From positions 54,960 to 118,959 of the forward strand of contig CACGDO010000002.1 in NCBI GenBank assembly GCA_902571865.1: DNA of 64,000 nucleotides. Reading direction: 5' to 3'. Under the pieces are notes generated by a model, which was given only the letters and a program-made list of their open reading frames with translations, ran no database searches and was not told where the DNA came from. A program made the translations under genes and the position numbers. Numbering within the stretch: the stretch's first letter is position 1; every line of letters starts with the position of its first letter. Positions 38,766 through 42,523 of this stretch are shown piece by piece. The DNA comes from an uncultured Alphaproteobacteria bacterium. Its GTDB lineage: Bacteria; Pseudomonadota; Alphaproteobacteria; HIMB59; GCA-002718135.

Positions 38766-41519
38766 ATGGCAGACAATCTACAGGTATCAGCAAAAATCTC
38801 AGAAGAAAAAAGTGTAAATATTTTAACATTAAGTGTTGTACGTCGTGACGGAGCAATTACTCCTTTTAAATCGGAGAAAATTTCGAATGCTATTAAAAAA
38901 GCATTCTTAGCACAAACAAAAATTAGAAATGATAAAAATAAGGAAAAAGAACAACAAGATGGAATTCATAAAACCGTCGAAGCTTTAACACATAAAGTTG
39001 TCTCAGCATTAACCAGAAGGATTGCTGATGGAGACATGATTCACATAGAAGATATACAAGATCAAGTGGAATTAGCTCTTATGAGGGATGAGCATCATAA
39101 GGTTGCTAGAGCATATGTTTTGTATAGAGAACAAAGAGCAGCTTCAAGATATCATACTAAAAAACTAAAAGAACAAGTTGGAGAAAAAGCTTCTTCAATG
39201 ATGGTCACTAAAAGAGATGGAAGTAAAGAACCAATTTCACTTGATAAAATTACCAATAGAGTTTCTGTTCTATCGACTGGTTTAAATATTGATCCAATTG
39301 TTGTTGTTCAAAAAGCAGTTCCAGGATTGTATAGTGATATTAGTTCTGTTGAAATTGATACTTATCTTGCTGAAACAGCAGCAGCTTTAACAGTTGAACA
39401 TCCTGATTATTCTTACCTAGCAGCAAGGATAAAAGTTAATTCTCTTCATAAAGAAACTCCAGGCTTCATAATAGCTACAAAGAACTTATACGATGATGGT
39501 TTATTGAGAGAAGATTATTATAAAAAAGTGATGGAAAATGCAGATGCAATAGAATCAGTGATTGATTATGACAAAGATTATACCTTTGATTATTTTGCTC
39601 TTACAACACTAATCAGGGCATATTTATTAAAGTTTGATAATAAAACAATTGAAAGACCTCAAGACCTATGGATGAGAGTAACTTTAACAGTTACCGGTAA
39701 TGAGTTTAATTTAGATAAAATAAAAGAAACTTATAAAAATTTATCAACTGGTACGTATACACATGCTACTCCAACTTTGTTTAATAGTGGATTAAAAATG
39801 CAACAATTATCGTCGTGCTTTTTAATAGGTATGGAGGATGATTCTATTGAAGGTATTTTTAACACCATAAAAGATTGTGCTCTAATATCTAAAACCGCAG
39901 GTGGTATTGGCATGCACGCACACAACATTAGAGGTAGTGGAAGTAGAATAAAATCAACAAATGGTAAATCTAATGGTCTTATTCCATTTCTTAAAATTTT
40001 TAATGAGACTGCTAAATCAGTTGACCAAGGCGGAGGTAAAAGAAAAGGTTCTTTTGCAGTTTACTTAGAGCCCTGGCATGCTGACATTGAGAAATTTTTA
40101 GAACTTAGAAAAAATACTGGCGCCGAAGAATTTAGAGCAAGAGATTTGTTTTACGCTTTATGGATACCAGATTTATTCATGAAAAGAGTAGAAAATGATG
40201 AAGAATGGACACTTATGAGTGAACATGAATGTCCAGGACTTTCTAATGTTTATGGTGATGAGTTTGAAAAACTTTACACTAAGTATGAAAATGAAATGAA
40301 GCATTTAGAAAAAATTAAAGCAAGAGATCTAATGTCTAAAATTATAGAAGCGCAGATAGAAACAGGACAGCCTTATATGCTCTATAAAGACTCAATCAAT
40401 AACAAGTCAAACCAAAAAAATATTGGTGTTATTAAATCTTCAAACCTGTGTGCAGAAATAGTTGAATACTCAGATAAGAACGAGACATCTGTATGTAACT
40501 TGGCTTCTATAGCTCTGCCAAAATTTGTAAAAAAATCAGATAAAAAATTAATATATGACTATGATGCTCTTTATGAAACAGCAAAATTGGCCACAAAAAA
40601 CTTAGATGAAGTAATTGATATTAATTTTTATCCAACTGATAAAACGGAAAGATCTAATAATAAACACAGACCAATAGGTTTAGGAATACAGGGTCTTGCA
40701 GATGTCTACTTCAAGTTAGGAATAGCTTATGATTCTGAAGAGGCTAAAGAAATAAATAAATTAATTTTTGAAACAATTTACTTTGGAGCTCTAGAAGCTT
40801 CATGTGAATTAGCAAAAGAAAAGGGAGCATACGAAACATTTAAAAATTCACCAATTTCGGAAGGTAAATTTCAATTTGATCTGTGGAATGTTAATCCTTC
40901 TTCAAAATGGGATTGGGATGCGCTAAGAGCTAGAATTAAAGAGCACGGTGTAAGAAACTCTTTAACCACAGCTTGTATGCCAACTGCGTCAACAGGCATT
41001 ATATTAGGTAACACTGAAACATTCCAAATACAAACCTCTAATATATATAAAAGACAAACACTCTCGGGTGAGTTCCTACTCGTAAATAGATATTTGGTGA
41101 ATGAACTTTCTCAAAGAGGACTGTGGAATAAAGATATGAGAGACAAAATAATTTTAGAAAATGGATCGGTTGAAAACATAAATGAAATTCCAACTGAGCT
41201 AAAAGAAATCTATAAAACAGTTTGGGAAGTATCACAAAAAACTGTCATAGATATGTCAGCAGATAGAGCGCCATTTATTGATCAAACCCAATCAATGAAT
41301 CTTTGGCTTTCAACGCCTACATTTGGAAAAGTTAATTCAATGCATATGTATGCTTGGAAAAAAGGTCTTAAAACAGGAATGTATTATCTAAGAAGTAGAT
41401 CAGCAGTTGATGCTGTAAAAGTTACAGTTTCATCAGAAAAAGCAGCAAAAGATGCTTATATAAATACTGCTATTAAACAAAACAATGAACCAGAAGATTG
41501 CGAAACTTGCAGTGCATAA
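38766..41519 (+). CDS. nrdA: ribonucleoside-diphosphate reductase alpha chain, class Ia, eukaryote-like, with two ATP-cones
   Basis: 917 aa. Two VxKRDG ATP-cone starts ([33 protein letters not shown]), LSSCFL, catalytic SSNLCAEI, and a C-terminal CETC redox pair. Confidence 0.96.
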   Translation: [917 protein letters not shown]

Positions 41520-41533
41520 AGAAGGAGTAAAGA

Positions 41534-42523
41534 ATGATATCAAAAGGCGTTAAATCAATATTTCCAATAAAAAACCAAGAAATTTGGGATAGGTACAAAC
41601 AACATATTCAAGCCTTTTGGACAACCGAAGAAGTATCATTGCAAGATGATTTAAGAGACCTTGAAACTTTAAATGATGGTGAAAAGCATTTTATTAAGCA
41701 TGTACTTGCATATTTTGCAAACTCTGAGGCAATGATTAATGAAAACTTAGCAAGTAGATTTTACAAAGAAATCCTAATACCTGAAGCAAGATGTTTTATC
41801 TCAATACAAATGTTGAACGAATCCATTCATGCAGAAATGTACGGTCTTCAAATTGAGGCTTATGTAAAAGATGCAAAAGAAAAAGATATGCTTTTTGATG
41901 CAATTCAAAATGTACCATGTATTAATCATAAAGCACAATGGGTATCAAAATGGCTTAATGGCAGTCAAAATCTCCTAACCAGATTGATAGGTTTTGGATT
42001 AGTTGAAGGTTTGTTTTTTGCTGGCTCTTTCTGTGCCATATATTACTTTAGGAAAAGAGGGTTATTACCTGGCTTAGCCCTATCTAACGATTGGATTGCA
42101 AGAGATGAAGGAATGCACTTTAGCTTTTCATCATTAATGTTTAGGACTTTAAGAGACAAGTTTAATAATAAAACATTAACTGATGCAGATATTAGTGATT
42201 TATCCTTGATTCCTTCAGACGTACCTCAATCACAGTTTGAAGAAATTGTTAGAGAAGCAGTAGCTTTTGAAAAAGAATTTGTAAAAGATGCACTGCCAGT
42301 AGATTTAATTGGTATGAATCAAGACTTAATGTGTCAGTATATCGAAGCTGTTGCAGACAGAATTGCTGATCTATTTGAATTTGACAGAGTCTTTAAAACA
42401 GAGAATCCTTTTGATTTTATGAGAGCTTTGGATGTTCAAAATGTTACAAACTTTTTTGAAAAAAGAGTATCTGAGTATCAAAGACCTACTGATAGAGCTT
42501 TAAGTTTTGATGAAGCATTTTGA
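41534..42523 (+). CDS. nrdB: ribonucleoside-diphosphate reductase beta chain, class Ia
   Basis: 329 aa. Di-iron/tyrosyl motif ESIHAEMY, EGLFFAGSF and SNDWIARDEGMH. C-terminal tail ...LSFDEAF. Confidence 0.96.
   Translation: MISKGVKSIFPIKNQEIWDRYKQHIQAFWTTEEVSLQDDLRDLETLNDGEKHFIKHVLAYFANSEAMINENLASRFYKEILIPEARCFISIQMLNESIHAEMYGLQIEAYVKDAKEKDMLFDAIQNVPCINHKAQWVSKWLNGSQNLLTRLIGFGLVEGLFFAGSFCAIYYFRKRGLLPGLALSNDWIARDEGMHFSFSSLMFRTLRDKFNNKTLTDADISDLSLIPSDVPQSQFEEIVREAVAFEKEFVKDALPVDLIGMNQDLMCQYIEAVADRIADLFEFDRVFKTENPFDFMRALDVQNVTNFFEKRVSEYQRPTDRALSFDEAF

Follow-up and report, generated by a model that had tools for sequence, protein, structure and literature searches.

A 64,000-nucleotide stretch of alphaproteobacterial DNA (part of contig CACGDO010000002.1; referred to below as the window) carries the operon nrdA-nrdB-grx at positions 38766-42762, which encodes the two subunits of a class Ia ribonucleotide reductase (RNR) and a glutaredoxin (Grx). 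RNR sets the size and the balance of the deoxynucleoside triphosphate (dNTP) pool, and the ATP-cone is its master switch. The locus represents a real, uncharacterised class Ia RNR variant. Its catalytic subunit NrdA combines a eukaryote-type core and the ATP-cone native to this core with a second, outer ATP-cone of the type found in Pseudomonas aeruginosa. The combination of a eukaryote-type core with a P. aeruginosa-type outer cone is undescribed in the searchable literature. Marine bacteria with eukaryote-type RNR, NrdA with multiple cones, mobile cones, and glutaredoxins associated with RNR are each known already. All three genes are located on the + strand: nrdA (38766-41519; 917 aa, catalytic subunit), nrdB (41534-42523; 329 aa, radical-generating subunit of the eukaryotic R2 type), and grx (42520-42762; 79-80 aa). 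An earlier sequence-only reading of the window had delimited nrdA and nrdB in the same way; the glutaredoxin gene was absent from it.

Both RNR subunits were compared against all PDB sequences. NrdA scored 929 bits with human R1 and 927 bits with yeast R1, followed by the enzymes of P. aeruginosa (621 bits), A. aeolicus (355 bits), and E. coli (~252 bits). It is 55-56% identical to human and yeast R1 and colinear with them from their Met1, which corresponds to Met145 in the window protein. Human R1 residues 1-760 were covered by a single colinear alignment. In comparison, the identity of the NrdA core to the Acinetobacter core is 43%. The sequence-only reading had described NrdA as eukaryote-like from residue 137 on; the likeness was upheld by these scores, and its start had to be moved to Met145. 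The motifs quoted in that reading were found, including CETC (residues 912-915) and, in NrdB, ESIHAEMY along with the radical Tyr103.

The catalytic motifs SSCFL (349), NLCAEI (560), VCNLAS (576), and GMYYLR (871) are shared with human and yeast R1. NrdA thus has the ten-stranded barrel with the catalytic Cys/Asn/Glu/Cys set and the C-terminal Tyr-Tyr relay. The models PF02867, PF00317, and TIGR02506 matched with 713, 67, and 725 bits, respectively. According to the Pfam coordinates, the all-alpha connector and the barrel span residues 237-874 (39474-41387, +). The C-terminal CxxC redox shuttle (C912-E-T-C915; 41499-41510, +) was read directly from the sequence, and the ending C-x-T-C-S-A is kept in every complete locus of the family.

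NrdB scored 298 bits with PF00268. Among PDB sequences, it matched mouse R2 (307 bits) and human R2 (302 bits) far better than the R2 proteins of Chlamydia (~105 bits) and E. coli (~58 bits), in agreement with its earlier description as eukaryotic R2-like. The metal motifs E96xxH99 and E192xxH195 and the radical Tyr103 are present. The segment ESIHAEMY, which aligns to mouse ENIHSEMY, is kept in 71 of 74 family NrdBs. Relative to mouse, human, and Plasmodium R2, NrdB contains an insertion of ~20 residues, NNKTLTDADISDLSLIPSDVPQ (aa ~206-232; window 42149-42229), which breaks the R2 alignments into two stretches.

These comparisons show both subunits, as far as sequence similarity can place them, to belong to the eukaryote/giant-virus-type (NrdAe-like) radiation. 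NrdA is not of the ordinary alphaproteobacterial type, as indicated by two observations. NF006577, the model for short alphaproteobacterial NrdA, scored 376 bits in two stretches (cutoff, 620 bits), and in the supplementary trees of Lundin et al. (2010), NrdA and NrdB of Pelagibacter strains HTCC1062, HTCC1002, and HTCC7211 fall into the short alphaproteobacterial clade. Members of this clade (~600 aa, no cone) include Parvibaculum, Acetobacteraceae, Rickettsiales, and Caulobacter. The NrdAz-side model NF005544 reached 787 bits, which is under its cutoff of 965 bits.

Two ATP-cones were detected in NrdA with PF03477 (gathering score, 25.8 bits). Residues 23-125 matched with 73.0 bits (E=3e-20) and residues 145-230 with 54.4 bits (E=1.9e-14). 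The sequence-only reading had counted two cones and placed a second complete cone ahead of the eukaryote-type one, and both statements agree with the PF03477 matches. It had also called the cone doubled, which was not borne out: cone 1 is an outer cone of the P. aeruginosa type and no duplicate of cone 2. Cone 1 comprises aa 21-130 (38826-39155, +) and is assigned by its sequence to the P. aeruginosa ATP-c1 type and the two-nucleotide class. The eukaryotic R1-type cone 2 comprises aa 145-236 (39198-39473, +). Between them lies a linker (aa 131-144; 39156-39197, +) that marks a breakpoint of similarity, since the similarity to NrdAz stops in it and the similarity to eukaryotic R1 starts one residue farther on. 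A variable tail of 20 residues precedes cone 1 (aa 1-20; 38766-38825, +).

The cones were then scored separately. The best match of cone 1 alone was the functional outer cone of the P. aeruginosa enzyme (5IM3; 80 bits, E=1.5e-21), followed by the cone of L. blandensis NrdB and then by NrdD cones. The cones of these three groups belong to the two-nucleotide-binding class (PMC5794259, PMC11226230). In contrast, cone 2 alone matched human and yeast R1 with ~100 bits and the inner P. aeruginosa cone with 43 bits. In pairwise alignments judged against shuffled controls, cone 1 shares 52% identity with cone 1 of Pseudomonas and Acinetobacter (z=33-45), and cone 2 shares 56% with the human cone (z=54). 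The two cones have only a 22-residue motif in common (z=4.9). A profile of two-nucleotide cones gave 143 bits for cone 1 and 1.4 bits for cone 2. These distinct affinities and profile scores exclude a tandem duplication in situ. The inner NrdAz cone was detected by the human cone (z=7) and by cone 2 (z=17); the outer NrdAz cone was not (z<1). This indicates that the inner cones are positional homologues and that the outer cone is an add-on.

The protein thus shows traits of two subclasses. Like NrdAe, it is closest to eukaryotic R1, but it has two cones instead of the usual single N-terminal cone. Since only "the majority" of NrdAe are said to have one cone (Burnim et al., PMC9669993), a single cone is not a strict requirement. 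Two PF03477 matches and an outer cone of the two-nucleotide class are shared with multi-cone NrdAz; the NrdAz core and the degenerate inner cone are not.

For conservation analyses, 75 full-length family genes were reduced to 26 lineages differing by at least 3%. Met145 aligns with the initiator Met of human and yeast R1 and is kept in 25 of the 26 lineages. The pair Met145-Met146 (39198-39203) is located exactly where human and yeast R1 start, and it may be the fossil start codon of a single-cone ancestor. We also considered an internal start at Met145, which would yield a single-cone isoform. It was rejected, as there is no well-spaced Shine-Dalgarno sequence: the GGAG ends 14 nt upstream.

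Pairwise identity across the 26 lineages averages 85% (cone 1), 84% (cone 2), and 87% (barrel). The dN/dS values, calculated according to Nei-Gojobori and meaningful in relative terms only because dS is near saturation, are 0.053 (cone 1), 0.066 (cone 2), 0.074 (all-alpha connector), and 0.046 (barrel). Both cones are therefore under purifying selection as strong as that on the catalytic barrel. Conservation is lower in the linker (76% identity, dN/dS 0.13), and residues 1-20 are essentially unconstrained (40%, 0.56).

In cone 1, the residues R26, R27, G29, F34, K38, D99, E102, M106, R115, V118, L119, Y120, R121, R124, and R128 are invariant, as is the R-R-D-G motif. Several of them correspond to a characterised set in L. 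blandensis: Asp73, Met80, Lys89, Ile92/93, Arg95, and Arg102 align to D99, M106, R115, V118/L119, R121, and R128. This L. blandensis set makes up the cone-cone interface, an internal salt bridge, and a contact to the gamma-phosphate (PMC5794259). From this residue conservation, we infer that cone 1 binds two nucleotides. In cone 2, no variation occurs at K149, R150, E155, and D198 (human K5, R6, E11, and D57); the position of D160 (human D16) is occupied by Asp (21 lineages) or Glu (5 lineages). A check of the nucleotide-binding residues in each cone, proposed along with the sequence-only reading, thus found both sets conserved. In human R1, the D57N mutant is no longer inhibited by dATP, and mutating D16 disrupts the hexamer (PMC5819950). 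The inner cones of P. aeruginosa and Acinetobacter lack the KRDG motif (Acinetobacter reads TDANG). The hydrophobic alpha6 interface of human R1 is retained in part: L47 stays Leu, F15 is matched by Leu, I44 by Val or Ile, and A37 by Ile.

Based on these data, we favor, with somewhat more than even confidence, the following model for the resident class Ia operon. A single-cone gene that was already complete would have received the outer cone from an NrdAz-type gene via domain transfer and not by duplication in situ. Catalysis would follow the standard alpha2beta2 scheme of class Ia. Both cones would bind (d)ATP, with up to three activity-site nucleotides per alpha subunit (cone 1 taking two and cone 2 one). 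With dATP, cone-mediated oligomerization would hold NrdB away from the position competent for radical transfer, and ATP would reverse this inhibition. The outer cone most likely drives a P. aeruginosa-like, alpha4-type pairing of cones via helices 3 and 4. It shows all the features of the P. aeruginosa and L. blandensis class, whose cones take up two dATP and pair to form inactive tetramers. The inner cone could provide a second dATP threshold or support a eukaryote-like contact. A novel inhibited assembly or a two-threshold response would be plausible. The co-translated glutaredoxin would re-reduce the C-terminal cysteines of NrdA, and NrdR would add transcriptional gating via a conserved upstream box.

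Several points weigh against this model. In the characterised multi-cone RNRs, only the outer cone is active, and the inner cone is regarded as decayed (PMC9669993); in view of this, the conservation of cone 2 could be structural. Human Met1 belongs to the alpha6 hexamer interface (PMC5819950). Its equivalent is buried here behind a 144-residue extension, so that a hexamer of the eukaryotic kind may not be able to form. A canonical alpha6 ring is doubtful, because the N terminus of cone 2 is tethered to the linker and cone 1. Furthermore, the alpha6 interface is changed at three positions (M41 to Q, Q23 to S, and R12 to variable residues). No nrdR gene is present within the 64-kb window. The AlphaFold2 model of full-length NrdA (mean pLDDT 51, cone 1 <50) is uninformative on cone packing. 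Only secondary structure was used from this low-confidence model, which has the beta-hairpin-plus-four-helix pattern in both cones. Finally, the phylogeny described below is a weakly resolved radiation with strong rate differences and resolves the big splits only.

Some of these points would fit a regulation by the outer cone only, with cone 2 as a conserved structural spacer and a cone 1-cone 1 alpha4 tetramer as the off-state. We consider this rather unlikely. Outer-only regulation is the rule among characterised multi-cone RNRs (PMC9669993), cone 1 resembles the functional P. aeruginosa cone at 52% identity with invariant interface residues, and the cone 2 N terminus, which contributes to the alpha6 interface in the human enzyme, is not free in this protein. 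However, the sequence of cone 2 speaks against a spacer. The inner cone of P. aeruginosa and Acinetobacter lost K-R-D-G, whereas K149, R150, E155, and D198 are invariant here and D160 varies only between Asp and Glu. In addition, the dN/dS of cone 2 is similar to that of the barrel.

The converse, that only the inner, eukaryote-type cone regulates in an alpha6-like manner and cone 1 is a passenger or has another role such as partner binding, seems improbable to us. Cone 2 is native to the core and has retained those residues on which dATP inhibition depends in eukaryotes. However, among the accessory regions, dN/dS is lowest in cone 1, whose nucleotide-binding and interface residues are invariant and which was retained through an order-level radiation in a streamlined genome.

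Relatives outside the family were collected from a library of 50%-identity representatives. The best 150 proteins were 46-61% identical to NrdA and none exceeded 61%; the family of the window was probably merged into clusters with eukaryote-type or intein-bearing representatives. A cone 1-like domain was found in none of these 150 representatives and cone 2 in 146. Nearly all of them align from query residue ~145 to their own residue 1. The best 80 relatives in IMG/VR, many with GVMAG names, were 48-54% identical, and all aligned from ~residue 145, i.e., with a single cone. In phages, only NrdAz-like two-cone proteins with at most 37% identity were found. Thus, the IMG/VR and phage collections provided no giant-virus or phage vector for the two-cone gene, and this candidate route was dropped. 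A search with a human and yeast N-terminal profile recovered mainly fragments of 150-260 aa. Fragments from Flavobacteriaceae/Bacteroidota were 63-69% identical to the human N-terminal region and start at M-x-V-x-KRDG, and cone 1 was absent from all six Bacteroidota-type N-terminal fragments inspected.

Cluster look-ups of the representatives returned baculovirus RR1 as the sole named protein. Ubiquitin, YqaJ, and ORFans share a giant-virus-like contig with one abundant relative. Among the nearest eukaryote/giant-virus-type R1 proteins, many have lengths of 1000-1900 aa and align in 2-5 stretches, which points to multiple inteins; one protein (P0193) begins inside a LAGLIDADG-like intein. In another (P0208), an unrelated, apparently patatin-like N-terminal domain of ~290 aa is fused before the cone. 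A contig labelled 'Acinetobacter phage MD-2021a' (CAKLQH020000007.1; L162) carries rstA/rstB, ydaM, and chromosomal-type nrdA-nrdB, and it looks like a bacterial chromosome or prophage-flanking contig with a phage label.

A neighbor-joining tree was built from an intein-free profile alignment (753 columns, 158 sequences) and rooted on Acinetobacter and Pseudomonas-phage NrdAz. The only eukaryotic anchors were human (residues 1-417) and yeast (382-769), both taken from PDB alignments. The clade of the window, which belongs to the order HIMB59 (see below), was monophyletic in 100/100 bootstraps and joined the single-cone radiation against NrdAz in 100/100. The phylogenetic check suggested with the sequence-only reading thus placed NrdA outside the ordinary alphaproteobacterial clade and its core with the eukaryote/giant-virus radiation. 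Within the single-cone radiation, the HIMB59 clade was the first branch in 0/100 bootstraps, and support for any sister was at most 19%. By raw distance, the HIMB59 type is closest to yeast (0.66) and human (0.67). The human, yeast, and HIMB59 sequences are the slowest-evolving relative to the outgroup, and the distance tree is therefore limited by long-branch effects.

According to PMC9669993, multi-cones arise inside NrdAz, a group separate from NrdAe. Together with the absence of cone 1 from all outside relatives sampled and the retention of Met145, this topology makes the gain of an outer cone by a single-cone gene the most economical scenario. On sequence grounds, the donor would have been an NrdAz-type gene.

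Given the weak resolution and the strong rate differences in the tree, we also weighed the opposite direction. The two-cone state could be ancestral to NrdAz and NrdAe, with cone 1 lost in eukaryotes, giant viruses, and Bacteroidota, and the HIMB59-type gene could then stand near the bacterial source of eukaryotic RNR. We regard this as quite improbable. NrdA aligns colinearly with NrdAz through both cones, cone 2 and the eukaryotic cone match the inner but not the outer NrdAz cone (z=17 and 7 vs. z<1), human and yeast are nearest by raw distance and among the slowest-evolving along with the HIMB59 type, and the host is alphaproteobacterial. All this would suit an ancestral two-cone state. However, the HIMB59 lineage was basal in no bootstrap, extra losses would be needed given the topology of PMC9669993, and other Alphaproteobacteria, including Pelagibacter, use a different NrdA. 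Moreover, Lundin et al. (2010) found no alphaproteobacterial signal for eukaryotic RNR. A specific version is in our estimation very improbable: rather than a eukaryotic import, the HIMB59 enzyme would be a surviving relative of the alphaproteobacterial stock of eukaryotic RNR, and the eukaryotic stem would have lost the outer cone. If true, it would put an alphaproteobacterial or mitochondrial-era origin of eukaryotic dNTP synthesis back up for discussion.

The carriers of the two-cone gene are numerous. The 120 database proteins nearest to NrdA share 85-98% identity with it, have lengths of 915-924 aa, and bear the labels Pelagibacteraceae or Alphaproteobacteria metagenome-assembled genomes (MAGs), and the family was seen in thousands of metagenome proteins. 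A scan with one genome per GTDB species yielded at least 542 matching stretches, of which the best 80 were used for the locus analyses. These 80 loci are 78-100% identical and come from as many different species-level genomes, the majority of them independent single-cell genomes and MAGs. They include GORG single amplified genomes (SAGs), HIMB59-LRMED-199, four MarineAlpha5 bins, SAR11-SAG-MED31, and Pelagibacteraceae bacterium AG-337-I02. The locus in SAG AG-891-K05 (L019) is 98% identical, and for genomospecies GCA002718135-1.A (order HIMB59), this SAG serves as reference genome (PMC10734472). MarineAlpha5 is related to HIMB59, and some "Pelagibacteraceae" MAGs are actually HIMB59 relatives (PMC8879329). 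Thus, the host of the window (GC 28%) is the order HIMB59/AEGEAN-169 and not SAR11 proper or Pelagibacter. This order, also called "SAR11 subclade V", has a disputed SAR11 membership (PMC10308909), and the lineage was reported at almost 5% of the epipelagic bacterioplankton (PMC10734472).

An uninterrupted nrdA ORF of 900-930 aa was extracted from 74 of the 80 loci. The gene order nrdA-nrdB-grx was found in 71, the exceptions being mostly short or truncated contigs. In all labelled loci, the operon is flanked by metK, ahcY, and genes for a sensor kinase and a response regulator on one side and by polA and an ABC ATPase gene on the other. This synteny persists where PolA identity drops to 46-68%. 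The GC content of the operon (0.32) is unremarkable compared to ahcY (0.35) and polA (0.28). Conserved synteny and unremarkable GC content argue that the acquisition is older than the diversification of the order. The nrd operon is an old resident housekeeping locus and not an island.

These data also bear on the possibility that the two-cone gene is an assembly or annotation fusion of a cone gene with a single-cone nrdA, or part of a recent eukaryotic or viral island. Met145-Met146, located where a single-cone gene would start, could be taken as a hint of a fusion. Such an artefact was refuted, and we regard its probability as practically nil. The ORF recurs uninterrupted in separate species-level genomes and in metagenome proteins, a usable Shine-Dalgarno sequence ahead of Met145 is missing, the flanking synteny is conserved across the order, and the GC content resembles that of the neighboring conserved genes.

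The operon is always flanked by a divergent pair of genes for an OmpR-type response regulator and a histidine kinase (36065-38486, - strand). The regulator is 75-93% conserved across the order, and the kinase is 88% conserved within the clade of the window and 37-45% outside it. We tentatively compared this pair with rstA/rstB of Acinetobacter as a possible synteny link to NrdAz. With 28% and 27% identity, the proteins are at the level of the family background, and the link was discarded.

The ATG of grx overlaps the stop codon of nrdB (TGATG), indicating translational coupling, and a GGAG is located 8 nt ahead of the nrdB ATG. Grx, a thioredoxin-fold protein with the N-terminal active site C12-G-Y-C15, matched PF00462 with 35.5 bits (cutoff, 22.9 bits) and stayed under the cutoffs of Grx3, GrxA, and the other matching NCBIfam models of glutaredoxin subfamilies. 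It ends in the tail NTFDEEF (42739-42759), which is kept in most loci as (T/S)-F-(D/E/N)-E-(E/D)-F. NrdB ends in LSFDEAF (42500-42520, +) at the position of the R1-binding heptapeptide; across the family, this extreme C terminus is kept as (S/A/T)-F-D-(E/D)-x-F. PDB alignments of NrdB end short of it. The NrdB tail had been described earlier as F-x-x-D-x-x-F: D(-4) and F(-1) of this pattern are kept, and position -7 is Leu. Both the Grx and NrdB tails share D(-4) and F(-1) with the mouse R2 tail, which we take to be FTLDADF. The similarity of the tails suggests that Grx may dock in the beta-tail groove of NrdA or compete for it, and a beta-like tail could be a route to dock the reductant on the catalytic subunit. 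In a limited literature search, no described precedent for an R2-like tail on a glutaredoxin was found.

Compared to known systems, the HIMB59 type shares with the eukaryotic class Ia RNRs (RRM1/RRM2, Rnr1/Rnr2; NrdAe/NrdBe) the core, the native cone, the CxxC tail, and NrdB, along with the catalytic residues, the radical Tyr, equivalents of K5, R6, E11, D57, and D16, and an acidic beta tail ending in F. It differs from them by its 144-residue N-terminal extension with a second cone of another class, the bacterial operon with its coupled glutaredoxin and NrdR-like operator, the insertion in NrdB, and an only partly conserved alpha6 interface. With NrdAz of P. aeruginosa (5IM3) and Acinetobacter, it shares the order of outer cone, inner cone, and core, a 52% identical outer cone, and an almost unchanged alpha3-alpha4 interface (IHIE[DE], KVAR.YV.YR). 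In contrast, the cores are 43% identical, and the inner NrdAz cone is degenerate and binds no ligand, whereas the HIMB59 inner cone is intact and constrained.

Eukaryote-type class I RNR has also been described in marine Bacteroidetes (Lundin et al., 2010). A transfer of RNR from eukaryotes to Bacteroidetes was proposed there, and our Bacteroidota fragments match it. In contrast to the HIMB59 type, which forms its own clade with 100% support, the Bacteroidetes NrdAe are single-cone proteins and nearer to eukaryotes. L. blandensis NrdBi, the Grx-cone-NrdB of Facklamia ignava, and Grx-NrdB of Francisella similarly illustrate that P. aeruginosa-type cones are mobile and that glutaredoxins are tied to RNR. 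Unlike in these NrdB transplants, the HIMB59 cone would have been added to an NrdA with an already working cone, and unlike in the Grx-NrdB fusions, the HIMB59 glutaredoxin is separate, translationally coupled, and equipped with an R2-like tail. In the searchable literature, no paper joins ribonucleotide reductase, Pelagibacter, and ATP-cone, and "ribonucleotide" and "nrdA" are absent from the text of the HIMB59 genome paper (PMC10308909).

According to PMC9669993, inner cones drift because they are unneeded, and few data point to a lateral transfer of cones from one catalytic subunit to another. The operon is a natural counter-example to a picture in which inner cones are decayed, eukaryote-type cones are single, and cones hardly spread between catalytic subunits. 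In a streamlined genome, an intact eukaryote-type cone stands behind an intact Pseudomonas-type cone, and both are strongly selected. This offers a system for studying how cone classes of the alpha4 and alpha6 types combine, and the HIMB59 enzyme could show whether outer cones arrive while the inner cone still works. Since the isolates HIMB59 and LSUCC0245 exist, the proteins are obtainable.

Upstream of nrdA, a candidate operator was found at 38712-38727, 54 nt before the ATG. This NrdR-box-like palindrome, GCACTACATATTGTGT, has two mismatches to the sequence ACACWATATATWGTGT, which we take to be the NrdR-box consensus. All 25 diverse loci compared have a similar box, 38-67 nt ahead of the start codon, which suggests a phylogenetic footprint of an operator. 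The 16-bp palindromic box upstream of nrd genes that characterizes the NrdR regulon is thus present, as judged by this presumed consensus. The box of the most distant lineages is perfectly palindromic, with a second box-like element beginning 32 nt upstream of it. The second element is degenerate in the clade of the window, where the block TTGCGATATTGAGCAAATGTTGTATTGTC (38665-38700) is nearly invariant. A consensus scan also returned a candidate sigma-70-type promoter (TTGACA, 16 nt, TATGTT; 38629-38656, +; 10/12 matches). Promoter-like sites are no more common here than in shuffled sequences, and confidence in this one is therefore low. Its TTGACA hexamer is kept in most of the aligned upstream regions. 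With Rfam, no riboswitch or RNA element was found close to the operon. The sole Rfam family match in the 64-kb window was a tRNA gene at 743-829 (- strand).

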